DNA from: Planctomycetota bacterium
GTDB lineage: Bacteria; Planctomycetota; PUPC01; DSUN01
DNA length: 64,000 nucleotides
Reading direction: 5' to 3'
Assembly (NCBI GenBank): GCA_035384565.1
Contig: DAOOIT010000017.1
Location: 24,579 to 88,578 of the forward strand
The notes under the pieces are model-generated. The model saw only the letters and a program-made list of their open reading frames with translations. It had not been told where the DNA came from and searched no databases. Positions 5,009-57,816 of the stretch are shown here, piece after piece; within the stretch, counting starts at the first letter, position 1; each line of letters opens with the position of its first letter. The position numbers were made by a program, and so were the translations under genes.

Positions 5009-5201
5009 CCCGTCGCGTCGGTTCCGTGGGCGGGACCTCTGCGTCCCGCCTCGGCAGATTCGCGGGACGCGGAAGCCCAGCCCGCACGAAGCAGGGCGGG
5101 CAGGCGATGACACGCTCGTCGCCTGCCCGCGTCCATGCGCGGGCCCCCGCCAGGCCCCTTGCATTCCTGCCGCCGCGCGCTATGGTATCTGAGCCGAACC
5201 A

Positions 5202-5299
5202 GGGTCTGTACGGGAATCCACACGGGACTGCGTCGCCGCGCCTTGCATCCGCCCCGCTGACGCCGGCAACGCAGCCCGCGTGGATTTCCGCACAGACCC
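5202..5299. repeat. Family 1 element, short (internal-deletion) form
   Basis: Same terminal inverted repeats and same first 70 bp as the long form (opposite orientation), with the roughly 180-bp internal segment missing. Confidence 0.7.
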
Positions 5300-5324
5300 C
5301 AGAGTCATGCCCAGGAGGCGAACC

Positions 5325-6416
5325 ATGCGAACGAGCCGGCGGCGGTTCCTGGCCTCGGCCACGGCTCTGGCCGCATTCCCCGGATGCTACTGGAGCGGGA
5401 CCATGAAGAGGCGACCGATTGTGCCCTGGCTGTCGGAAGTGCAGGCGGCCCCCGCCGACTTGCCGGCGGATACACCCCGGCTGGCGCCGCTGCTGGTGGA
5501 TGCACACGGGCGCCCCATCACCACGCTCGGGGCCTGGCGCACGCGACGGGCTGAGCTGCGCCAGGCCTGGCTCGACTTCCTCGGCACGGTGCGGGCCGAG
5601 CGCGCACGCCCCAAGCTCGAGGTGCTGGAGGAGGACCGCCCCGAGGGCTGCATCCGCCAGCTCGTGCGCTACGAGAGCGAGCCGGGAATCCCCGTCGAGG
5701 CCTACCTGCTCAAGCCCGCCAGGCAGACCGGCCCGCGGCCCGGCATCGTCGCCCTCCATTCCACCACCAACGCCACGATCCGCCAGACGGCCGGCCTCAC
5801 CGACACGCCCGAAAAGGCGTTCGGCCTCGGCCTCGCGCAGCGCGGCTTCGTGGCCTTCTGCCCCAAGTGCTTCCTGTGGGTGGGCGAGGGCGACTACCTC
5901 GCCCGCGTGGCCGCCTTCCACCAGCGCCACCCCGGCGCCAAGGGCATGGCCAAGATGCTCTTCGACGCCGCGCGCGCCCTGGACGTGCTCGAGACCCTGC
6001 CCGAGGTGGACGCCGCGCGCCTGGGCGCCGTGGGCCACTCGCTGGGCGGCAAGGAGGCGCTCTACCTCGCCGCCTTCGACGAGCGGGTCAAAGCCGCCGT
6101 CTCCAGCGAGGGCGGCATCGGCATCTCCTTCTCGAACTGGGACGCCCCCTGGTACCTCGGCCAGGAGGTGCGCGACCCGGGCTTCGCGCGCAGCCACCAC
6201 GAACTGGTCGGCCTGATCGCGCCGCGGGCCTTCCTGCTCCTGGGCGGCGACGACGCCGATGGGACGCGGAGCTGGCCCTACATCGAGGCGGCGCTGCCCG
6301 TCTACCGCCTCTACGGCGGCCCCGCCCGGGTCGGCCTGTTCAATCACCGCAAGGGGCACAGCGTGCCACCCGAGGCCGAGGAGCGCGTCCGCGAGTGGTT
6401 CGCTGCGTGCCTGTAG
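5325..6416 (+). CDS. Alpha/beta hydrolase (dienelactone hydrolase/esterase-like) with Tat signal
   Basis: Twin-arginine motif SRRRFLAS, then GHSLGG nucleophile elbow. AGGAGG RBS 7 nt upstream of the ATG at 5325. The ORF track start at 5280 lies inside a repeat element. Confidence 0.7.
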   Translation: MRTSRRRFLASATALAAFPGCYWSGTMKRRPIVPWLSEVQAAPADLPADTPRLAPLLVDAHGRPITTLGAWRTRRAELRQAWLDFLGTVRAERARPKLEVLEEDRPEGCIRQLVRYESEPGIPVEAYLLKPARQTGPRPGIVALHSTTNATIRQTAGLTDTPEKAFGLGLAQRGFVAFCPKCFLWVGEGDYLARVAAFHQRHPGAKGMAKMLFDAARALDVLETLPEVDAARLGAVGHSLGGKEALYLAAFDERVKAAVSSEGGIGISFSNWDAPWYLGQEVRDPGFARSHHELVGLIAPRAFLLLGGDDADGTRSWPYIEAALPVYRLYGGPARVGLFNHRKGHSVPPEAEERVREWFAACL

Positions 6417-6557
6417 CGGCGGGTTGCGGGCTCACCAGGGCCTGGCGATCGTGACCTGCCGACCGCCGGGAGCGCGGAACCGGTGCCGCGGCGCCGGCGA
6501 AACCACGCCATAACCGCCTATGTTGCAACACCTTACGCCCTCCCGCATTCCCCCCTT

Positions 6558-6671
6558 GCATACTTGCTCATCGCCCGGGTGAGCGAGTATGGCCGGAACC
6601 GCGAGAATCGCCAATCCTCGCCCTTCTGGCCTTGCTGTATCACTTTCCCCCTCACAGGGTTGATACAACAT
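6558..6671. repeat. Family 2 structured repeat, copy 1 (two hairpins sharing the CATACTTGCTCA arm)
   Basis: About 85% identical to 42598-42711, same orientation. Confidence 0.6.
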
Positions 6672-6937
6672 GGGCACGCTGCGCCCCCCAAGCACCCGGC
6701 TGCGCCCTCCCGAGGAACCACCAGGCCCGCCGAGCCAAGATCGCCAGACCATGAAGAACCGCGCTGTACCTCTCAAGTACCTGCTATATATACGCTTACA
6801 GCGAGCCATCCGTCTGGGGCAATGCGCACGGATTGACCGACCGGTCGCTTGACATCACTAATTTGCTGGGCTATACTATCCCGGAACTGTATTAGAAGCC
6901 GGTCCGTACTTTGGCCCGACTTTGGCGGGGCGGTGCC

Positions 6938-8325: not shown

Positions 8326-8405
8326 GAGCCTGTCCAAGAATCCGCGTGGGACTGCGACGCCCGCGATTCTGGCCGCACGCAAGGCGCGTGGAGGAGAGAA
8401 GGGCC

Positions 8406-9215: not shown

Positions 9216-9363
9216 GGCTCCTCCTGTGTCGCGGTCCCGTGTGGATTCCCGCACTGCCCCTAAGATACCAAGCATCCCGTGGATGTCAACACCGGAACCC
9301 GGTCGTCGGAACCGCGCGGCGTCGGCCAGGGCCTCACGTGTACCCGCAAACGGGTGTGGGCCA

Positions 9364-9465
9364 TCTCTGGAGGTAGTTTCCGTTGCGGACTCTCATAGCG
9401 ACGAGCGTCCCGCTTGTCGAACGGACGAAGCGAGCCGCTTCCCCTATTCCGGGGATTCCCGCAAT
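9364..9465. repeat. Family 3 repeat, copy 1
   Basis: Shares TCCGTTGCGACTC...AGCGAC.AGCGTCC.GCTTGTCGAACGG...TTCCGGGGAT with 43052-43180. Confidence 0.5.
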
Positions 9466-9479
9466 AGAAGCTGCCTGCG

Positions 9480-9760
9480 ATTCCGGCCTGCACCCCCGGA
9501 AAGGGGTGTGGGCCGGAGTTGTAGGTGGCTGCTGGAGCTCCGAAGGAGCGAAATGGGATAGCCCAGGGCAACGCCCTGGGAACCAGACCGCCCCGCGGCA
9601 GCCCTGACAGGGCGGAATAGAGAGCTTCTATCTCGCCCCTTCAGGGCTGGACCCGTGAATCCCACTGAACCCAGGGCGTTGCCCTGGGCTATCCCATGCG
9701 AGCCCTTCAGGCTCCAGAGAGAACCACCCTGCCTACAATTCCGGCCCACACCCCCCGGGA
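9480..9760. repeat. About 280-bp nested near-perfect palindrome
   Basis: Outer arms GGGGTGTGGGCCGGAGTTGTAGG / CCTACAATTCCGGCCCACACCCC. Inner arms GGGATAGCCCAGGGCAACGCCCTGGG and its reverse complement. Confidence 0.65.
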
Positions 9761-9948
9761 AACCTCGGCTTGAATTCGCGCGGGCAGGCCAATAGCATGG
9801 CGGTGGAGCGAGAGGCCACTTGGCTCGGCCGCCCCCCACTCCATCGCCGCCGCGGTCCGTGGGTGGGGCCGTGCTCTGCGGGGCTCACGCTCATTGCCGC
9901 AGGCGTTCCGGGACGGAGCGCCGAACCCACAGGCAGCGGGGCGCGCTC

Positions 9949-10911
9949 GTGAGCATCGCAGACCGGATTCGAGCCGCGTGCCAGGCTGTTGCGCAGTGCG
10001 CAACGCGCGTGCGCATCCGCGAGGCGCGGATCGCGGACTACGCCGCTTCGCTCCCGCTCGACCAGGCGGCGCGCCCGCAACACGACCCGGCCACGCACTA
10101 TCTCGGCCGCGGCGGCGAGACGGTGGCCTTCTTCCTCACGCTCGACACCGTGAACTTCGGCTCGGGCTACTTCCCCCACCTGCGGAAGCGGCCCGGCCAC
10201 TCCGGCTACTTCACCGTCGCGGCGTCGCTCGCCGATGCCTTTCGCGCCCGAGGGCCATTCGCCGCGGAGGAGCTGGCCCGGCTCACCGCGCCCGATTGCG
10301 CGGCCCTCTTCGGCCAGGAGGACGCCGCCGAGCCGATCGGCGAGCTGATGCGCCTGTTCGCCCGGGCGCTGAACGACCTGGGGCGGTTCCTGCTCGAGCG
10401 CTTCGGCGGCGACTTCCTGCGGCTGGTCGCGGCGGCCGAAGGCTCGGCCGAGCGGCTCGCCGCCCTGCTCGCCGAGATGGCGTACTTCCAGGACGTCGAG
10501 CCGTACGGCGCCTGGCAGGTGCCGTTCTACAAGCGGGCGCAGCTTGCGGCGGCCGACCTCGCGATCGCCTTCGGCGGCGAGGGGCCGGGCCGCTTCGGCG
10601 ACCTCGACCGCCTGACGATCTTCGCCGACAACCTGGTGCCCCACGTGCTGCGCGTGGACGGCGTGCTGGCCTACGACGAGGGCCTGGCCGCGCGCATTGA
10701 TGCCGGCGAGCTTGTCCCCGCCGGCTCGCCCGAGGAGGTGGAGATTCGCGCCTGCGCCCTTCATGCGGTGGAGCGGATGGTGGGCGCGCTCCGCGCGGCG
10801 GGCCGCGGCGACGTGACGGCGATGGGGCTGGACTACGTGCTCTGGAACCGCGGGCAGCAGCCGCACTACAAGGCGCAGCCGCGGCACCGCACCCGCACGG
10901 TGTTCTACTAG
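9949..10911 (+). CDS. Queuosine-salvage family protein (DUF2419/Qng1-like), tentative
   Basis: TLDTVNFGSGYF motif region. GTG start at 9949 chosen because the upstream part of the ORF overlaps a 280-bp palindrome. Confidence 0.45.
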   Translation: MSIADRIRAACQAVAQCATRVRIREARIADYAASLPLDQAARPQHDPATHYLGRGGETVAFFLTLDTVNFGSGYFPHLRKRPGHSGYFTVAASLADAFRARGPFAAEELARLTAPDCAALFGQEDAAEPIGELMRLFARALNDLGRFLLERFGGDFLRLVAAAEGSAERLAALLAEMAYFQDVEPYGAWQVPFYKRAQLAAADLAIAFGGEGPGRFGDLDRLTIFADNLVPHVLRVDGVLAYDEGLAARIDAGELVPAGSPEEVEIRACALHAVERMVGALRAAGRGDVTAMGLDYVLWNRGQQPHYKAQPRHRTRTVFY

Positions 10912-11191
10912 GGTCTGTGCGGAAATCCACGCGGGCTGCGTTGCCGGCGCCAGCGGGGCGGATGCAAGGCGCGGCGACGCAGGCGATGCTACGGAGCGCA
11001 TCGCTGAGGAGCCGCAACGCGGCAGACACCCCGCTGCCGCCGCAACCCGAAGGGAAGCCGCGACCTATGGCCTCGAGCTGTGTCGCTCGTCGTCAACGAT
11101 GCTCTCCGCCGCATCGCCTCCTCCGCGCTCCTTGCTCGCGGCCAGAATTCGCGGCGTCGCAGTCCCGCGTGGATTCCCGCACAGACCCTAG
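10909..11191. repeat. MITE-like palindromic element, long form (family 1), with about 30-bp terminal inverted repeats
   Basis: Left end TAGGGTCTGTGCGGAAATCCACGCGGGCTGCG and right end CGCAGTCCCGCGTGGATTCCCGCACAGACCCTAG are reverse complements. Confidence 0.7.
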
Positions 11192-33059: not shown

Positions 33060-33102
33060 CCGAGCTGCGGGTGGAGCCTCCGCGCCCCGCGAGTCGGCCC
33101 CA

Positions 33103-33161
33103 ACTGTGGGCGGGACCCCCTGTGCCCCGCGATTCGCGGGGCAGAGACGTCCCGCCCACAA
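33103..33161. repeat. Family 5 hairpin (ACTGTGGGCGGGAC...GACGTCCCGCCCACAA)
   Basis: 12-bp stem. Located 3' of the flotillin gene. Confidence 0.55.
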
Positions 33162-33341
33162 CGCCCACCGGGGTCGCCCTCGCCGTCTCACGCGGATTCT
33201 CGGATAGACTCCCAGGGCGGCCGCGCCGTGCACATGCCGATGTGGTGGAGCCCCTACAGGCCGGCATGTTCGCCGCAAGAGCTTCTGATCAGGCGCGCAG
33301 GGTGCGCGCGATGCGCGCGCGGGGCCTCATCTCGCCCCGCC

Positions 33342-41497: not shown

Positions 41498-42505
41498 ATG
41501 CCCCGCAAGAAGGCCACCTTCCTGGCGCCTGCCGCCAACGTCGAGCTGGTCTTCGGCCCCGAGCTCATCGCTCGGGCGCAAGCCCTCTGCGATGTCGCAG
41601 CAACCGCCCTCCCCCACAACGACCCCGCCACCGTCAAGGCCGCACTCCGCGGCGTCGAAATCGTCCTCTCCACCTGGGGCATGCCCAGGATGACCCCCGA
41701 CATCCTCGACGCCGCGCCCGACCTCCGCGTCATCCTCTACGGCGCCAGCTCCGTCAAAGGCTTCGTCACCGAAGCCGTCTACGACCGCGGCATCACCGTC
41801 ACCACCGCGGCCCTCGCCAACGCCACCGCCGTGGCCGAGTTCACCGTCGCACTCATCACCCTCTCGCTCAAGAACGCCTGGGCCCACCTGGCCGCGCTGC
41901 GCCGCGAAGGCCGCCGTGCCTGGCGCCGAGCCGACCTCGGCCCCTCCCGTGGCACCCATCGCGCCGTGGTCGGCATCATCGGTGCCAGCGCCACGGGGCG
42001 CGAAACAATCCGTCTTCTGAAAAGCTACACTTGCCCGATCCTCGTCGCAGACCCGTTCCTCACCCTCGACGAGGCCCGCACCCTCGGCGTTGAGAAGACC
42101 GAACTCGACGACCTCATCGCCCGCAGCGACGTGGTCTCCCTCCACGCCCCAAACCTCCCCCACCTCCGACACATGATTGGCGCCACGCAACTGCGGTGCA
42201 TGAGGGACGGCGCGGTCTTCATCAACACCGCGCGCGGCGCACTCGTGGATGAAGAGGCCCTCGTCGCCGAGCTCCGCACGGGCCGCCTCCTCGCCTGCCT
42301 CGATGTCACCGACCCCGAGCCGCCCGCCGAGGGCAGCCCGCTCTACTCCCTCCCCAACGTCATCCTCACCCCCCACCTCGCCGGCGCCACGGGCGCCGAC
42401 TGCCGACGCATGGGCGAGCTGTGCATCCAGGAACTCGAACGCTACCTTGCCGGCCTGCCGCCACTCCATCCCGTCACCCGCGAGCGGCTTCCCTTCACGA
42501 GCTAG
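41498..42505 (+). CDS. D-isomer-specific 2-hydroxyacid dehydrogenase family protein
   Basis: NAD-binding GxxGxxG and catalytic domain pattern. Confidence 0.85.
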   Translation: MPRKKATFLAPAANVELVFGPELIARAQALCDVAATALPHNDPATVKAALRGVEIVLSTWGMPRMTPDILDAAPDLRVILYGASSVKGFVTEAVYDRGITVTTAALANATAVAEFTVALITLSLKNAWAHLAALRREGRRAWRRADLGPSRGTHRAVVGIIGASATGRETIRLLKSYTCPILVADPFLTLDEARTLGVEKTELDDLIARSDVVSLHAPNLPHLRHMIGATQLRCMRDGAVFINTARGALVDEEALVAELRTGRLLACLDVTDPEPPAEGSPLYSLPNVILTPHLAGATGADCRRMGELCIQELERYLAGLPPLHPVTRERLPFTS

Positions 42506-42545
42506 GGTCTGTGCGGAGACCCCCGTGGGCTGCGCTGCGGGGCCA
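42503..42545. repeat. Family 1 element fragment (left arm) starting at a gene stop codon
   Basis: TAGGGTCTGTGCGGAGACCCCCGTGGGCTGCG. A further right-arm fragment lies at 9229-9256. Confidence 0.5.
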
Positions 42546-42597
42546 AAGGGGGCCCAACGTCCCGCAATGACTTACGATCCCCGGGCATGCCCCCTCC

Positions 42598-42711
42598 CAT
42601 ACTTGCTCATCCCGGAATTGAGCGCGAATGGCCGGAACCGCGAGAATCGTCAATCCTCGGCCATCTGCCCATACTTGCTCACCTGCCCCCTCTCAGGGTT
42701 GAGCAAGTATG
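42598..42711. repeat. Family 2 structured repeat, copy 2
   Basis: Perfect 12-bp stem CATACTTGCTCA/TGAGCAAGTATG around the loop CCTGCCCCCTCTCAGGGT. Confidence 0.6.
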
Positions 42712-43051
42712 AGCAGGCCGCTCGCGGGCACTCGCCAGGGCCTTCCCCACGAACCGCCAGGGCCGCAAGGAGCAGGAACGTCTGCACCCCGCACTAGGCC
42801 AACCGAGGCAAGCCCGCCCACCCCCGAGGCACTAGGCGCTCCCTCAGAACCCGCGTCGCCTGCGGCCAGTGGAAGCAGCATGCTCCAGAGACCACCCTCC
42901 CGAAGGTTCCAATACCCTCGGGAGGGTAACGGGAGGGGCGGGCGCTGGGGGGCGCACCCTCCCGAACGCATTGGAACGTTCGGGAGGGGGGGCTCGCTGG
43001 CCGATTCCAGGCGCAGTCTCCCCCCCAAGGACGGCATTCTCGGGCGTGGAC

Positions 43052-43180
43052 TATCTCTGTAGGCCGTCTCCGTTGCGACTCCCCGCAGCGACAAGCGTCC
43101 AGCTTGTCGAACGGCCAAGGGTAACCGCAAGCGGGACGCTCGCGGCTGCCTGGCAGGGGGCACCCTGTTCCGGGGATCTC
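43052..43180. repeat. Family 3 repeat, copy 2
   Basis: See copy 1. Confidence 0.5.
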
Positions 43181-43228
43181 GGCGGCTACAACTACCCGCC
43201 ATTCAAGTCAACTCTCGCGATTTTCCTC

Positions 43229-43256
43229 TTGCACTCTCATGGTGAAGCGCTATAAT
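43229..43256 (+). promoter_or_regulatory. parA promoter (TTGCAC-N16-TATAAT)
   Basis: Read from the sequence. A parS-like site abuts the -10 box. Confidence 0.45.
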
Positions 43257-43271
43257 GTTTCACGTGGAACA
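43256..43271. promoter_or_regulatory. parS-like site TGTTTCACGTGGAACA (15/16 to consensus)
   Basis: Palindrome matching the parS consensus TGTTTCACGTGAAACA with one mismatch. Confidence 0.6.
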
Positions 43272-43444
43272 CGACGCCTGCCGGCCGCCCCGCCAGTGTC
43301 GCGCCTGCGGCCAAGCCAAGCGTCTGGCGCTGGACCCCTGTGCATGATATCCCTCCCCGTTCCGGCGGCGTCTCCCCGATCCACATGCCACGACTCGAGG
43401 CCGCGTGAGACTGCGCGACGCGGCTCCAGGCGGGACCCCTCACG

Positions 43445-44203
43445 ATGAAGGTCGTCGCAATCGCAAATCAGAAGGGCGGCGTGGGCAAGACCACTACCGC
43501 CATGAACCTCGCCGCCTGTGTCGCACTCTCGGGAGCGAGGACCCTCCTTGTAGATATAGACCCCCAGGGGAATGCCACCAGCGGGCTGGGGCATCTGCGG
43601 GCACGCAACGGCGGCGCCCACGATGTCCTCTTCGCGCCCGACAAGACACCCGCGGCTGTCAAAGCCACGGACGTCCCCAACCTCTCGCTCTGTCCCGCCA
43701 GCCGCCTCCTCGGCGGCGCCGAGACCGAGCTGGCCCATCACCCCGACCGGGTCACCCGCTTCCGCAAAGCAGTCGCAGCCATAAGTTCTGATTACGACTA
43801 TGTTTTCGTCGACTGCCCGCCGTCGCTAGGCCTCTTGCCCACCAACGCCCTGGCGGCCGCCGACGGCCTCCTAATCCCCATCCAGTGCGAGTACTACGCC
43901 ATGGAGGGGCTGGCGCAGATGCTCGAGCTCTTCCAGCATGTGCGCGACCACTACAACCCCAAGCTGCGTCTCGAGGGCATCCTCTTCACCATGTACCAGC
44001 CCGGCCTCCCGTACGCCGATGAAGTCGCCAACGAGGTGCGCTACCACTGTGGACAACATGTCTACGAGACCTCGATCCCTCGGGACACGCTGCTCAGTGA
44101 AGCGCCCTCGCACGGCAAGCCGATCATTTACTACGCTCCACGCTCGATCGGAGCCTGGAGCTACGTCGCACTGGCAAAGGAGATTCTCTCCGATGAAGAG
44201 TAG
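43445..44203 (+). CDS. parA: Chromosome partitioning ATPase ParA/Soj
   Basis: KGGVGKTT deviant Walker A. Confidence 0.95.
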
Positions 44204-45080
44204 CCATTTGGGCCGCGGCCTAGGCGCCCTCCTCGGCAACGCCGAGGAACTCCAGCCCGAACCTCAGCAGACCCTCGAAATCCCTGTCGCCAAGGTCAGA
44301 CCCAACCCCAACCAGCCGCGGCACGAATTCGACCAGGACTCCCTCGGCGAGCTCGTCGAGTCGGTCACACGCAACGGAGTGATCCAACCGATCATCGTGC
44401 GCGCACTGGAGGACGGCTACGAGCTCATTGCGGGCGAGCGCCGTTGGCGCGCCGCGCAACTGGCGGGCCTGGCCACCATCCCAGCCATCGTGCGGCCAGC
44501 GAGCGAGAACGAGAGCCTCGAGCTGGCGCTCATCGAGAACATCCAGCGCCAGGACCTCAACCCCATGGAGCAGGCCAGGGCGTACAAGAACCTCATCGAA
44601 CGCTTCAGCCTGACGCAGGAGGAGGCTGCCGCGCGCCTCGGCAAGAAACGCTCCTCGGTGGCTAACATCTTGCGACTATTGGACTTACCAACCGACATCC
44701 AGGACGCTGTTTCACGTGGAACATTGTCCATGGGGCATGCGCGCGCCCTTCTAGCCCTGCCCGACAGAGCCGAGCAAGTGCGCCTCGCCGCGCGCATCCA
44801 GCGCGACGACCTCTCCGTGCGCCAGACTGAGCAGATCGTGAATGACCGACTCAAGCGGGCACGCTCGCACCAATCTACAACCGAGCCCAAGCCTGCCTAC
44901 ATCACGGACCTCGAGGGCAAACTCCGCGAAGCATTGGCCACCCGTGTCACCATCCTGCCCCACAAGCACGACGAGGGGGGACGAATCGTCGTGGACTTCT
45001 TCACGAAGGATGACTTCCAGCGCCTCCTGGAGCGCCTGCTGCCGAGGGCGGGCCGTCCGGAGGAGGCGACCGCGACTTAG
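44193..45080 (+). CDS. parB: Chromosome partitioning protein ParB/Spo0J
   Basis: GERRWRAA ParB box and HTH. 11-nt overlap with parA. Confidence 0.9.
44708..44723. promoter_or_regulatory. Second parS-like site (identical 16-mer) inside parB
   Basis: Identical TGTTTCACGTGGAACA. Confidence 0.55.
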
Positions 45081-45960
45081 AGAGGGGTGGGGGCGACGAG
45101 TGGCTAGTTCCGTAGAGGTGCCGAGTCATGATAGTTCCCGGCGAGTAGGTTACGGGTGTGGCAGAAAGCGAGGTGGCGGCACAGGGGGCAGGTTGGGTAC
45201 AGAGGTAGTCTGGGGCTAGGGAGCAGTTCCTGGGCTGATGGGGGGGCATGGTGGGTGATGCATGAACGCCGGTAGTGTGGTGTAGAACCTCTGGTGCGAT
45301 GAAATCTCGTGGAACCGCGTTGGGTGGGCGGATCGAAATAGGGTCTTGGTGCGAAGGTGGGTGGAGAAGGAACACGAATTGAGTAAAGAGGTGTGAAGCG
45401 AGAGCATAGCGTAGCAAGATGGCTATGGTGAGACGAGTGAAGCAACATCGGAAAGTGCAAGGGTTAGTAAAGCGGAAAGCCACTCTTGGGCGTCGAGGGA
45501 GCATCGTGTAGTAAGGGACAGCGGTATGCTTGGCTCGTGCGGGACTGTGGCATCCTCGGGTGGGTGGCTTGGCTGGGAGATGCCGGGTCAGGTGCGCTAT
45601 GCAAGATGCTTGGGGCTTGGGGGTACCTCGGTCCGTGGGAACGCGGGGTGATGACTGCGCCGCAGCTTTTGTTAGTGGAGCGGCGGGCGATGATGCGGAC
45701 GGTCGCGCAGGCAGCCCCAACCTCCCGCAGGTTCGCAAGCCGCGGGAGGTTCCCGACCCGTCGCCCTTTGTTCCGCGAAGGCGAGGGGCCTCTGAACGGC
45801 CAAGAGGCTCGCCCCACGCAGGGCGTAGGGACGAAAAGAGGGAGCAGAGCGTAAGGACGAGAGGGCGTTGCGCTAAGTGTATGACGGCTGTAGAATCAGA
45901 CGGGTGTGCGCGCGGTGTGGCTGGCGGCCGGGGGCGGGTGGACGATGTAGGAGAGCGCAG
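45081..45960. other. 880-bp non-coding, C-depleted, G-tract-rich, lower-GC island
   Basis: No credible ORF on either strand. Strong strand asymmetry with many GGG/GGGG tracts. Confidence 0.5.
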
Positions 45961-46491
45961 ATGAGGACGGGGTCATGGGTCATGGCGGTGTGCCTGGTGG
46001 GTGCCGCTGCCTGTGAGAGGGGGGAGGGGCCGAAGGCGCGACCGAGTGAGGGGGCGGCGACGAAGCCGAAGGCCGTGGGGCCGCCGGCGCTGCGGATTGC
46101 GCAGTGGTACGGGACGGAGCCTTTGACTCTGGAGGGTCTCAAGGGGAAGGTGGTGTTGTTGGACTTCTGGAACACGATGTGTGGGCCGTGCCGGAAGCTG
46201 ATGCCGCATCTCGATGAGCTGTATCGGAGGCATAAGGCGGAGGGCCTGGTGGTGATTGGGGTGACGGAGGATGAGAAGAACGATCTCGAGGAGTACGTGA
46301 AGGGGACTCCGGTGGGGTATCCGCTGGCTATAGATGAGATGAAGGGAGGGTCGGGGGTGACATTCGACGCGTACAAGATCGTTGCGGTGCCGACGGTGGT
46401 GCTGATCGGCCGCGATGGTGCCGTGGTGTGGCGAGGGACGGGCGAGAAGCTGACGGATGCGATGGTGCTTGCGGAATTGGCGAAGAAGTGA
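45961..46491 (+). CDS. TlpA/redoxin-family thiol-disulfide oxidoreductase lipoprotein
   Basis: Lipobox LVGAAAC. WNTMCGPC thioredoxin motif. AGGAG RBS. Confidence 0.8.
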   Translation: MRTGSWVMAVCLVGAAACERGEGPKARPSEGAATKPKAVGPPALRIAQWYGTEPLTLEGLKGKVVLLDFWNTMCGPCRKLMPHLDELYRRHKAEGLVVIGVTEDEKNDLEEYVKGTPVGYPLAIDEMKGGSGVTFDAYKIVAVPTVVLIGRDGAVVWRGTGEKLTDAMVLAELAKK

Positions 46492-46551
46492 GTGTTCCGG
46501 CGCCGCGATCGGAGTATCATGAGGAGGGAGGCAAGCGGCCGGGCAGGGGGA

Positions 46552-47445
46552 ATGGCCATGATTGCAGGAAGAGCGTTATTCGGTGCGGTGCTGGGCGTGG
46601 CCGTTTGGACCAGTGGATGCGCCTGGCTGGATCCGAGCGTCTACCAGGGGCGCGGGAGCGGTCCGCCCTTTAGCGGGTCGCCAAGGGTTGCCGCGGCGCC
46701 GCAGGGGGCGCAGGGGACCCAGGCGGAAGGGAAGTTGCCGTTCGGCGCCACGCCGCGGAGGGACGAGGGGCTCTGGGGCGTGCCGAAGGAGGGCGATGTC
46801 CTCGGGCGGTCGCCGGACAACGTGGCGATCGTGGTGGAGAAGCTGGACGCGGGCACGGCGTCGGCGATGGACCTGAGCGGGAGCTTCCGTGCGCGCAGCG
46901 GCGAGCGAGTGATCTCGGGTGGGGACCCGGGGGCGGCGCGCGGCGGGCTCAATGTGCGGGTTGTGTCGGGCTCGTTTGCCGGGCGCCTCGGCGGCTCGGT
47001 GAGTCGCACGCGGTCCGGCAGCCGCGACCAGATGTTCATCGTGGTGAGGAGCGGGACGGAAGGCGCGCTGGCGATGGGGAGCGACATCTGGCTGACGCGC
47101 CTGGGCTACTGGACGCCGCGCGGGTATCTGCTGATTGCGGAGCGGGAGTTCGTGGGCCGCCAGCTCGTGGTGCGGCCGACGATTCTGGGCGGCGGGCAGA
47201 TTGCGATCGAGCTCTGGCCGCGCTTCAGCACGCGGCGCGGGAGCGTGGTGGATGTGACGCAGCTCGCGACGCGCGTGACGGTGCGCGACGGGCAGTCGCT
47301 GGTGATCGGCGGGCTGAACACGGCGGACAGCGAGATGACCCTGGCGCTGTTCGGCGTGGGCGGCCGCGAGTCGAGCGGCATGACGGCCATCGTGCTGACC
47401 GCGCAGATCGGCGGTCTGGACATTGACTGGCCCAAGGTGCGGTGA
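46552..47445 (+). CDS. Lipoprotein with secretin-like C-terminal domain (tentative)
   Basis: Lipobox WTSGCAW. C-terminal TRVTVRDGQSLVIGGL...AIVLTAQI resembles a secretin domain. Confidence 0.45.
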   Translation: MAMIAGRALFGAVLGVAVWTSGCAWLDPSVYQGRGSGPPFSGSPRVAAAPQGAQGTQAEGKLPFGATPRRDEGLWGVPKEGDVLGRSPDNVAIVVEKLDAGTASAMDLSGSFRARSGERVISGGDPGAARGGLNVRVVSGSFAGRLGGSVSRTRSGSRDQMFIVVRSGTEGALAMGSDIWLTRLGYWTPRGYLLIAEREFVGRQLVVRPTILGGGQIAIELWPRFSTRRGSVVDVTQLATRVTVRDGQSLVIGGLNTADSEMTLALFGVGGRESSGMTAIVLTAQIGGLDIDWPKVR

Positions 47446-47486
47446 GATCGTGACCCGCGGGCGGACTCTTGAGAAAGGAGCGCGGC

Positions 47487-48134
47487 ATGGTGCAACGGGG
47501 GTCGTGGGGCAGGGCGGTGGCGTGTGCGCTGGCGGCGTTGGCGGCGGGCGCCGCCGGGGCAGGGGAGGGGGAGCGGCCGAGCGAGGCGTTCCGCCGCGAG
47601 TTTCTCGCAGGGATGCCGAAGAGCGCGCTCAGCACGACGCCCGAGGACGCGACGCTGCTGCGCATCCTGGTGGAGGCGCGGCACGCGCAACGCGGGGTGG
47701 AGGTGGGCTCGTACATCGGGTTCGGCGCCTGCCACATGGGAATCGGCTTCGAGCGCACGGGCGGGCATCTCACGACCATCGAGATTGACCCCGCGACGGC
47801 GGAGCAGTGCCGCGAGAACATCCGCAAGATGGGCCTCGAGAAGAGCGTGACGTGTGTGACGGGCGATGCGCTGAAGGTGCTGACCACGCTCGAGGGGCCC
47901 ATTGATTTCCTGTTCATTGACGCCGCGAAGAGCGATTACTTCAAGTACCTGAAGGCCGTGGAGGCGAAACTCAAGGCGGGCGCGGTGATCGTGGCGGACA
48001 ACACGATCCAGTCGGCCGGCGCGATGAGGGACTTCCTGGATTACCTGGCGAACAGCCCGGACTACGAGAGCGTGACGGTGCGTGCGTCGGACGCCAAGCG
48101 CGACGGGATGACGATTGCGTACAAGGTGCGTTGA
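47487..48134 (+). CDS. Class I SAM-dependent O-methyltransferase (family 3) with signal peptide
   Basis: VEVGSYIGFGA SAM-binding motif and FIDA motif. N-terminal signal-like segment. Confidence 0.75.
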   Translation: MVQRGSWGRAVACALAALAAGAAGAGEGERPSEAFRREFLAGMPKSALSTTPEDATLLRILVEARHAQRGVEVGSYIGFGACHMGIGFERTGGHLTTIEIDPATAEQCRENIRKMGLEKSVTCVTGDALKVLTTLEGPIDFLFIDAAKSDYFKYLKAVEAKLKAGAVIVADNTIQSAGAMRDFLDYLANSPDYESVTVRASDAKRDGMTIAYKVR

Positions 48135-51192: not shown

Positions 51193-52389
51193 CTAGCGGC
51201 GCCGCCTGGGGCCGGCGACGCGGCGGGTCGAGGCGAGGGGGCGGAGGCGCGCGAAGCGCGCGAGCAGGCACCGGGTGCGCTGCCGATGTCGCCGCCTGAG
51301 GGCGAGGGCCGCCGCGGGGGCGATGGGCGTCGCCCGGGCCTTGCGTTTCCTGACACGTGGCGCGGGCTCGGGCCGAAGCGGGATCACGGGCACCGCGTCC
51401 TCGACCACCGCGTGCGTCTCCTCGCCGGCGGCCGGCGGCGGCTCGCCGTCCGTGTCGCCCAGGGCGGCGACCTCGGGCACCGCGATGTCCTCGACCTCGG
51501 TGTCGGCGGCGGCGTCCTCGTCGCTGGCTGCCGCGGCGGGCGGCGGGGCCGGCTCGGGGGGCGTAGCCTCGGGCGCCTCGGGCTCCGGGGGCGGGGGCGT
51601 GGGCGCCACGAGTTCGGTCTCGCTGAGCGGCGTGTCGTCGAGGAGCACGATGCGGATGTCGCCGTGGGCGCCGGCTTGCTCGGCGCGCACGCGGCGGCGG
51701 CGGATCAGCTCGAGGAGGGCCATGAAGGCGTGGATGAGCCCGAGGCGGCCGTCGGCCGGGTTGAACAGCTCGCGCAGCGTGGCGTGGCGGCGCGAGCGCA
51801 GCTCGTCGAGCAGGTCGTTGCAGTAGGCGCTGGCCGGGCGCTCGTCCAGCACGATGTGGCGGGTCGGGTCCAGCGTCGTCTGGCTCAGGATCACCTTGAA
51901 GGCGGCCACGAGGTCCCACACGGTCACCTCGCCGAGGAGGATGGGCAGGTTCTCCTCGGGGGCGCGCTCGGGCAGGCCGAGCGCGGCGGCGGCGCCGCGG
52001 GTGAACTTGAGGGCCTGCTCGTCGGCCCGGGCGGCGAGCGCGCGGGCGGCGTCCTTGAAACGCTTGTACTCGATCAGTTGGCGGATGAGGTCGGCCCGCG
52101 GGTCCTCCTGCTCCTCGTCGCCCTCGCGTTCGGGCTGGGGCAGGAGCATGCGCGACTTGATCTCCATCAGCGTGGCGGCCATGACCAGGAACTCGCCCGC
52201 GAGGTTCACGTTGACCTGCTGCATCACCTCGAGGTGCTGGAGGTACTGGTCGGTGATGCGTGCGATGGGGATGTCGGCGATCTCGACCTCCTCCTGGCGA
52301 ATCAGGTACAGGAGGAGATCGAGGGGGCCGCTGAAGGCCTCCAGGTCCACCTTGTAGCCGTAGCTTTCCTCTTCGTAGGACGACACCAT
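51193..52389 (-). CDS. scpA: Segregation and condensation protein A with long Pro/Glu-rich C-terminal extension
   Basis: FSGPLDLLLYLIRQEEVEI ScpA N-terminus. About 170-aa low-complexity tail. Confidence 0.75.
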   Translation of the reverse strand: MVSSYEEESYGYKVDLEAFSGPLDLLLYLIRQEEVEIADIPIARITDQYLQHLEVMQQVNVNLAGEFLVMAATLMEIKSRMLLPQPEREGDEEQEDPRADLIRQLIEYKRFKDAARALAARADEQALKFTRGAAAALGLPERAPEENLPILLGEVTVWDLVAAFKVILSQTTLDPTRHIVLDERPASAYCNDLLDELRSRRHATLRELFNPADGRLGLIHAFMALLELIRRRRVRAEQAGAHGDIRIVLLDDTPLSETELVAPTPPPPEPEAPEATPPEPAPPPAAAASDEDAAADTEVEDIAVPEVAALGDTDGEPPPAAGEETHAVVEDAVPVIPLRPEPAPRVRKRKARATPIAPAAALALRRRHRQRTRCLLARFARLRPLASTRRVAGPRRRR

Positions 52390-57705: not shown

Positions 57706-57816
57706 TACGTGAAACGTGACGCGTGAGAAGACGCAGAGCGCCCGAGGCATCCGGCATTTGTCTCTTCTCACGTATCACGCATCACGTACCACGCATCACG
57801 CAACAGGAGTCTGCGA

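Follow-up and report, generated by a model that had tools for sequence, protein, structure and literature searches.

The DNA analysed here is a 64-kb stretch (hereafter, the window) with a G+C content of about 70%, which belongs to a metagenome-assembled genome (MAG) of an uncultured member of the Planctomycetota from digester metagenomes. Within it, two sulfatase genes and a 2-hydroxyacid dehydrogenase gene are followed by a gap at positions 42506-43444, by the partition genes parA and parB, by a further gap at 45081-45960 and by a thioredoxin-like gene. The subject of this report is the gap upstream of parA, in which a preliminary description had recognised an assembly of repeats ending in a promoter overlapped by a ParB-binding parS site. 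We consider it likely that the gap is made of two parts, namely a parAB control region subject to ParB feedback (about 43220-43444), preceded by a spacer of approximately 720 bp holding decayed passenger repeats (42506-43219). The flanking genes and the elements assigned to the control region are the following:

41498-42505, plus strand: gene for a D-isomer-specific 2-hydroxyacid dehydrogenase (Pfam 2-Hacid_dh_C, E=3e-44)
43220-43256, plus strand: predicted parAB promoter, made of an ATTTT tract, a -35 hexamer TTGCAC at 43229-43234, a 16-nt spacer and a -10 hexamer TATAAT at 43251-43256
43256-43271, no strand given: parS site TGTTTCACGTGGAACA, fused to the -10 hexamer and matching TGTTNCACGTGAAACA perfectly on the minus strand
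43272-43444, plus strand: putative 5' leader of parA, unique sequence with no repeat matches
43445-44203, plus strand: parA, encoding a Walker-type partition ATPase (Pfam AAA_31, E=5e-54; CbiA, E=6e-27)
44193-45080, plus strand: parB (Pfam ParB_N, E=1e-35; HTH_ParB, E=1e-38; ParB_C)

The TTGCAC-N16-TATAAT promoter, with parS overlapping its -10 box, lies where the preliminary description had placed it. Specifically, the overlap consists of a single base, the last T of TATAAT, and the parS site would cover the expected transcription start. A second, identical parS is found within parB, at 44708-44723; both sites show 0 mismatches to TGTTNCACGTGAAACA on the minus strand, compared with an average of 0.00 sites in shuffled sequence.

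It is the comparison with relatives, extended to eight related lineages, that makes the promoter convincing. In six lineages, with ParB identities of 71-100%, the ATTTT tract, a TTGCAY hexamer, 16 nt and TATAAT are all fixed, and the final T of the -10 box is invariably the first base of parS. The relatives sharing this layout with the window are L039, L048, L045, L041 and L046, in which the spacer and the flanks diverge. The wider pattern TTGCAY-N16/17-TATAAT is conserved in six or seven lineages, and in two distant ones (ParB 55% and 53%) parS is shifted by 2 nt relative to TATAAT. The copy of parS within parB is kept in all eight lineages. This conservation constitutes good evidence, as far as sequence comparison goes, for a genuine promoter and for the importance of where parS is placed. 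Between the promoter and the start codon of parA there are 69 to 241 nt, depending on the lineage; the leader is 74-79% identical to those of L039 and L048 and unalignable to those of more distant relatives. A structured leader was ruled out by a fold z-score near 0 (z=-0.03).

In order to place this arrangement in a broader frame, 80 ParB loci were sampled across phyla by a ParB profile search of genome contigs. A parS site within parB occurs in 45 of these loci and one just upstream of parA in 13, so that the latter position is not rare. The profile search of that genome contig collection returned nothing above 53% identity to the ParB of the window.

Chromosomal ParA proteins are devoid of the DNA-binding domain through which plasmid ParA exerts autoregulation, and in P. 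aeruginosa ParB bound to a parS site beside a promoter represses that promoter (PMC7022226). According to a 2026 preprint, the control of ParA and ParB abundance has remained unresolved (PMC13371061). At the present locus, the parS-fused promoter points to an autoregulation of parAB by ParB. The control region would comprise a sigma-70-type promoter, the -10 box fused to parS and then a leader of about 175-190 nt. ParB loading at 43256-43271 would occupy the DNA from around position -7 to beyond the start site, and the bound protein would hinder RNA polymerase, leading to repression of parAB when ParB is abundant, that is, to negative autoregulation. The same parS, together with the one within parB, would also provide the loading sites for the partition complex.

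With the chromosomal parS/ParB sites known so far (TGTTNCACGTGAAACA), the locus shares a perfect 16-bp site beside parAB, a second one in parB and a ParB with N-terminal, helix-turn-helix and C-terminal domains; it differs from them in the fusion of one site to the -10 box, with a spacing that is constant throughout a planctomycete clade. In the literature collection searched, no paper was found that describes a parS/-10 fusion as the operator of a chromosomal parAB. Certain plasmid partition operons are repressed via centromeres that overlap promoters, as in the case of parC/ParR of R1, of the type Ib proteins ParG and omega, and of the KorB operators of RK2. As in those systems, the protein that binds the centromere would occupy its own promoter, its level thereby being coupled to the occupancy of the site. 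In contrast to the plasmid systems, which employ other DNA-binding folds or KorB, the predicted repressor here would be a chromosomal ParB of the CTP-clamp type acting at a single 16-bp site. The conserved parS/-10 fusion represents a concrete and testable candidate for transcriptional feedback on chromosomal parAB. It is the functional, and a modestly interesting, feature of the gap, and nothing points to a new kind of system.

Upstream of the control region, the gap forms a mosaic whose repeat pieces are also encountered singly at other places, both in the window and on metagenome contigs, in agreement with the preliminary description. A blastn search of 42480-43460 against the window recovered all of the pieces listed in that description at or near the coordinates given, with significant matches at other positions (E from 5e-7 to 2e-32); a repeat search agreed, and significant matches were also found in 28 other contigs. 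The pieces are related to transposable elements of the miniature inverted-repeat type (MITEs), to repetitive extragenic palindromic (REP) units and to REP doublets forming hairpins (REPINs), and are arranged as follows:

42502-42551, plus strand: family 1 left arm ("A arm"), solo and diverged, with an identity of 78-82% across 51 nt to the arms that complete MITEs carry in the window and at 19 metagenome loci
42553-42776, plus strand: family 2 structured repeat, with a core at about 42553-42725 (nhmmer E=4e-49)
42794-42835, no strand given: two CTAG sites, 38 bp apart, each within GCACTAGGC
42885-42900, minus strand: fragment of a fourth type of repeat arm (GGGTGTGGGCC...TCTCTGGAG type), reading CTCCAGAGACCACCCT
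42888-42995, no strand given: REPIN-like hairpin doublet, an inverted pair of 32-nt hairpins, self-complementary (blastn E=2e-11)
43041-43066, plus strand: arm-like piece CGGGCGTGGACTATCTCTGTAGG, formerly taken as the 5' end of family 3, matching 9351-9376 and related to the arms at 9504 and 9743
43083-43151, plus strand: family 3 core, in which GTAG-tagged REP-type hairpins form an inverted dimer (nhmmer E down to 3e-18)

An assembly artefact can be dismissed as the source of the gap, because the same sequence, with 0-1 single-nucleotide differences, is present in five independent metagenome assemblies. The encoded ParB is identical to a protein of an NCBI Planctomycetota MAG and was read on 18 contigs from JGI, ENA/NCBI and Logan metagenome assemblies. 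Four Logan short-read assemblies end at 42962, within the hairpin doublet, as expected of a repeat; the repeats explain why short-read assemblies break in the gap upstream of parA.

Family 1 was surveyed by running a 23-nt arm pattern against metagenome contigs, which yielded 28 stretches carrying the arm. Among them, 10 distinct copies are complete, measure 104-329 bp and have ends that match, as is typical of MITEs. The full-size copies measure 284, 302 or 329 bp, are highly similar across the alignment, contain no open reading frame (ORF) and have long inverted ends of the GGGTCTGTGCGGRAATCC type. CTAG stands on either side of nearly all copies and gives way to TTAG in a few places, a pattern that may reflect a target duplication, no empty site having been seen. 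Py-T-A-Pu, in most cases CTAG, is the documented target of IS5 (PMC5493358). By these sequence features family 1 is a MITE, probably of the IS5-family type, and the copy in the gap is a remnant of it. Size, absence of ORFs, long inverted ends, the number of similar copies and the CTAG or, rarely, TTAG flanks are all shared with IS5-derived MITEs. The differences are that no autonomous partner came up, none having been searched for, that what the gap retains is one diverged arm, and that inner modules are swapped among variants; specifically, the 329-bp variant has the hairpin doublet as its inner module, in place of that of the 284-bp and 302-bp variants.

The arm in the gap matches 10908-10958 with 82% identity (E=5e-7) and, in inverted orientation, 5302-5252 and 11191-11158 (blastn). 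It begins at the CTAG at 42502-42505, where the mosaic starts and within which the TAG stop codon of the dehydrogenase gene (42503-42505) is located. Alignment to complete MITEs revealed no right arm in the gap, so that the remnant has one end instead of two. Four family 1 arms in the window (8322, 10908, 11188 and 42502) start at a CTAG overlapping the TAG stop codon of a gene, and the tetranucleotide is five-fold depleted in the window, with 19 sites against 96 expected, three of them within the gap. The CTAG pair at 42794-42835 may, on our own inspection, correspond to remnants of MITE ends or to target sites. A nearby CCCCGCACTAGG at 42786-42797 might, again on inspection, be a decayed MITE end. 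In the fetched loci no pair of family 1 arms was seen 1-2 kb apart. A family 1 25-mer had no match in the genome contig collection, from which either the lineage or the repeats are absent.

As side observations on the same family, the window holds complete MITEs of 284 bp at 10908-11191 and, in a minimal form, of 104 bp at 5199-5302. The former occupies the entire gap between two convergent genes, and the CTAGs flanking it hold both of their stop codons. In addition, nine of the 19 CTAG sites of the window fall in the interval 42502-45219.

A repeat unit of about 175 nt that forms three hairpins constitutes family 2; in the gap, the hairpins map to about 42605-42623, 42628-42664 and 42666-42715. 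The element is present as reported, although it extends beyond the 42598-42711 first assigned to it: by blastn, 42564-42766 matches 6525-6730 with 73% identity over 208 nt (E=2e-32). Copies were collected from seven independent loci and are related to one another; in three loci family 2 directly follows a family 1 arm. The DNA of the repeat folds with z=-4.9. Separately, a near-consensus promoter (TTGACA, 17 nt, TATACT) is found at 6850-6880, about 170 nt past the second family 2 copy of the window and ahead of the gene at 6911, in a repeat-then-promoter layout resembling that of the parA gap.

The two units of the hairpin doublet read CCCTCCCGAAGG-loop-CCCTCGGGAGGG at 42895-42926 and CCCTCCCGAACG-loop-CGTTCGGGAGGG at 42957-42988, and the whole doublet can be folded into a single long hairpin (-43 kcal/mol, z=-7.1). 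Besides its occurrence inside the 329-bp MITE variant, it is found solo and, in L016, as a threefold tandem array, in which copies of the doublet are placed head to tail with a period of 125 bp (L016 6910-7279). Overlapping its left edge, CTCCAGAGACCACCCT at 42885-42900 recurs, with a 3-nt insertion, as CTCCAGAGAGAACCACCCT at 9712-9730, within an arm spanning 9712-9753; related arms lie at 9352, 9504 and 43042. The preliminary description had noticed that this string is shared with the region 9690-9720. The sharing is genuine and is accounted for by the fourth arm type, but the position is 9712-9730, slightly to the right of the one indicated.

Arms of this type also delimit an element elsewhere in the window. 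A palindromic element of about 260 bp (9480-9760) has GGGTGTGGGCC-type ends and contains a perfect 28-nt inverted doublet (9553-9580 and 9670-9697), one arm of which is the Acido-Lenti-1 match at 9536-9580 (minus strand), the sole Rfam match at the gathering threshold in the window. The Acido-Lenti-1 motif behaves as a REP-type repeat in this genome. In L034, a family 2 copy and a hairpin doublet are followed, at 9660-9800, by tandem copies of CGCTCCCCTCCTTCTTCTCGTCCCTG (period of about 27 bp), and a related stretch, reversed, is found at 45685-45864 of the window, in the gap after parB.

Family 3 is represented in L017, L026, L032 and L038 and at 9396-9438 of the window; by blastn, 43041-43128 matches 9351-9438 with 78% identity (E=5e-13). 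Units elsewhere read GTAG-CGACAAGCG-TCC-CGCTTGTCG and are accompanied by an inverted partner. Of 11 units, 6 retain an unchanged GTAG and the others deviate from it by 1 nt, so that family 3 shows the 20-40-nt palindrome with an unpaired GTAG at one end that characterises REP units. In the copy of the gap both tags are mutated (GCAGC...GCTGC) and the fold is weak (z=-1.8). Family 3 and the hairpin doublet alike consist of two inverted units at a short spacing, which is the organisation of REPINs. REPs carrying a GTAG tag have been reported from the PVC group (Planctomycetes, Verrucomicrobia, Chlamydiae); most of them are located downstream of genes, and they frequently form inverted dimers (PMC3733652). 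The elements described here resemble the mosaics known as GTAG-REPs, REPINs and bacterial interspersed mosaic elements (BIMEs) in being 25-32-nt palindromic hairpins arranged in inverted dimers that can fold as one hairpin (PMC3733652, PMC3337134), in the location of the family 3 GTAG 5' of the stem and in the clustering of units with other motifs in gaps after genes. They differ in that the CCCTCCCGAAGG doublet has its GTAA/GTAG motifs 3' of the stems rather than 5', and in that one doublet is carried within a MITE with terminal inverted repeats.

With the pieces thus identified, their relation to parAB was assessed. Repeats cover 58% of the gap upstream of parA, as compared to 45-100% of the following seven gaps of the window:

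5009-5326, 6417-6910, 8326-8405, 9216-9819, 10912-11187, 33060-33341 and 57706-57816: other gaps covered by repeats

The enrichment suggested by the preliminary description is consequently not seen in the window, an outcome which that description had itself named as part of what would speak against its proposal. No repeat of these families was found upstream of parA in L041, L043 or L045-L048, and scans for the parS consensus and for half-sites detected no further parS or half-site in the mosaic. The suggestion that the mosaic supplies additional ParB-spreading or nucleoid-organising sites is thus not borne out. Since the repeats occur elsewhere in the window, are absent upstream of parA in most relatives and carry no parS half-sites, we regard them as passengers and not as partition elements. 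The copies in the gap are also decayed, being 71-82% identical to their relatives, one-armed or with mutated tags.

The closest relative, L039 (ParB 92%), keeps the junction between the dehydrogenase gene and parA, with a family 1 arm and an orthologous family 2 copy (71% identity) at the same position. The 354-bp stretch with the doublet and family 3 is replaced in L039 by an unrelated 220 bp, which includes a different, inverted MITE fragment. This comparison, together with the absence of the repeats in other relatives, indicates that the spacer turns over fast and the adjoining control region does not. A reconstruction of the insertion order through L039 was attempted and abandoned, because the different MITE fragment at the matching place does not allow the insertion history to be resolved. 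As for the insertion hot spot that had been envisaged, insertion and turnover did take place, but its origin-proximal character finds no support in the window. Taken as a whole, the preliminary description stands as regards the mosaic, the promoter abutting parS and the occurrence of insertion and turnover, and finds no support in the window for the extra ParB sites, the enrichment and the proximity to the origin.

All together, the repeats look like ordinary dispersed elements of MITE and REP type that have decayed in a permissive spacer, as passengers with no specific role in partition. A CTAG-targeting, IS5-like MITE end would have landed on the CTAG overlapping the dehydrogenase stop codon, and the spacer would have come to hold this end, family 2, the inverted hairpin doublet and the GTAG-tagged REP dimer of family 3. 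The repeats may have arrived by transposition or by recombination between copies, subsequently decaying and being in part exchanged. With them, an uncultured Planctomycetota lineage contributes uncharacterised families of MITE and REP type, which is of help for annotation, and an exchange of modules among copies becomes apparent.

A coding function of the gap was considered as well. ORFs in the gap show no GC3 signature, G+C being about 0.65 at each codon position versus 0.7/0.5/0.88 in real genes. A conserved small gene in the gaps was rejected, given that this coding signal is lacking and that tblastn matches appear in all frames and in the closest relatives only, and therefore reflect nucleotide rather than protein similarity. 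Between 42300 and 43600 nothing reached the Rfam gathering threshold, and the permissive threshold likewise yielded nothing in the gap beyond weak matches of microRNA models to the hairpins; a terminator scan downstream of the dehydrogenase gene found none.

Several observations weigh against a control region preceded by mere passengers. The -35 hexamer TTGCAC agrees with the E. coli consensus TTGACA at 3 of 6 positions, and a consensus promoter scanner calls no promoter here because this match falls below its threshold. L043 (ParB 69%) has the promoter without parS, so that the fusion is not indispensable. On the side of the repeats, the surveyed contigs were fetched via family 1 and constitute a biased sample, and no IS5-type or RAYT (REP-associated tyrosine transposase) partner turned up, no search having been aimed at either. 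In family 2, compensatory changes are accompanied by numerous G-U pairs on the strand that has the orientation of the upstream gene, and the long gaps on both sides of parAB, kept in relatives, are not predicted by the accumulation of junk alone. These last two observations are the starting point of the alternatives that deserve consideration.

On account of its compensatory changes and G-U pairs, family 2 may act as RNA rather than being a mere passenger. According to this alternative, which we hold to be possible though doubtful, family 2, and perhaps the REP-type hairpins, would be part of a 3' untranslated region of the dehydrogenase mRNA that stabilises or processes it, or would give rise to a small RNA; the other pieces could still be passengers. 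In the consensus fold of 42 pairs, 93% of the cells of the 3' helix are paired and 9 of its 19 pairs have changed on both sides; for the structure as a whole, 0 of 500 shuffles attained the observed covariation score, which also lay above every slid-partner control. Elements mobilised as single-stranded DNA would, however, also be expected to have strand-specific hairpins with compensatory changes, and the alignment holds only seven, mutually related sequences. The repeat lies 50-135 nt past the stop codon of a co-oriented gene in five of the seven loci, a position in keeping with REPs, which are reported mostly downstream of coding regions and acting as RNA elements (PMC3733652); yet this orientation bias is not significant, and one copy is located upstream of a divergent gene. 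Furthermore, the hairpin lacks a trailing T-tract, the scanner calls no terminator and family 2 has no match in Rfam.

The alternative built on gap length holds that the gene-free DNA on either side of parAB is itself selected, as room for ParB clamps or the partition complex or as insulation of the neighbouring genes, with repeats just filling the spacer. The window has 51 gaps with a median length of 66 bp, and the two that flank parAB, at 939 and 880 bp, exceed all the others. In relatives with ParB identities of 69-92% the upstream gap measures about 600-1400 bp and the downstream one 570-1400 bp or more, with different neighbouring genes and a gap sequence that cannot be aligned; several ORFs called by annotation pipelines in these gaps have no coding signature. 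Nevertheless, the most distant lineage with flanks examined, L047 (ParB 55%), has short gaps of 165 and 148 bp, the loss of ParB alters few genes in or near the ParB-bound zone in the species reviewed (PMC7022226), and long gaps could just mark rearrangement breakpoints and repeat insertion. Selection on the gaps themselves therefore appears unlikely to us. Quite unlikely, too, is an elaboration in which the parAB of this clade would sit on a platform of about 1 kb of gene-free DNA on each side, conserved in length and not in sequence, with the parS/-10 fusion as the entry point from which ParB clamps would both set transcription and spread over the buffer, the repeats being tolerated there or acting as boundaries to sliding. 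The downstream gaps concerned are the following:

45081-45960 of the window: 880-bp gap after parB, with no ORFs, G-rich on the plus strand (skew +0.36) and with 54% G+C at 45250-45500
L039 8886-10116, L048 4796-6022, L041 8889-10975 and L043 8889-10278: long gaps after parB in relatives, unalignable with that of the window

Finally, the mosaic had been proposed to mark an origin-proximal recombination hot spot, or it could be part of oriC itself, a reading that we judge highly improbable. In general, parS sites are usually near the origin. The neighbours of parAB differ between relatives on both sides, and the plus-strand GC skew changes sign exactly at the end of parB, with the lowest cumulative skew of the window at 45 kb. 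Elsewhere in the window, though, the skew tracks gene orientation and not position. The neighbour change does not reveal a local hot spot either, because distant relatives share no neighbours anywhere in the fetched loci, synteny appearing to be lost throughout and not just at parAB. No DnaA-box signal emerges from the window: TTWTNCACA gave 0 matches, and TTATCCACA, at up to 1 mismatch, gave 3, none of them in gaps and at chance level. In addition, dnaA, dnaN and rsmG are missing from those genes of the window for which a scan or precomputed annotation was available. The location near an origin thus finds no support in these 64 kb, and the two-part organisation of the gap proposed above, with a ParB-responsive control region and a spacer of decayed repeats, remains the explanation that we favour.

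Two minor features of the surroundings may be added. The three plus-strand genes at 45961-48134 (thioredoxin-like, secretin-like and methyltransferase) are rich in G at the third codon position (GC3 skew of +0.20 to +0.65), in comparison with -0.57 to +0.14, mostly negative, in the other 45 genes of the window; in L048 and L039, too, the orthologues of the thioredoxin and secretin genes are G-rich. Lastly, the gene for ScpA, a partner of the SMC condensin, maps to 51193-52389, about 6 kb past parB and on the opposite strand.

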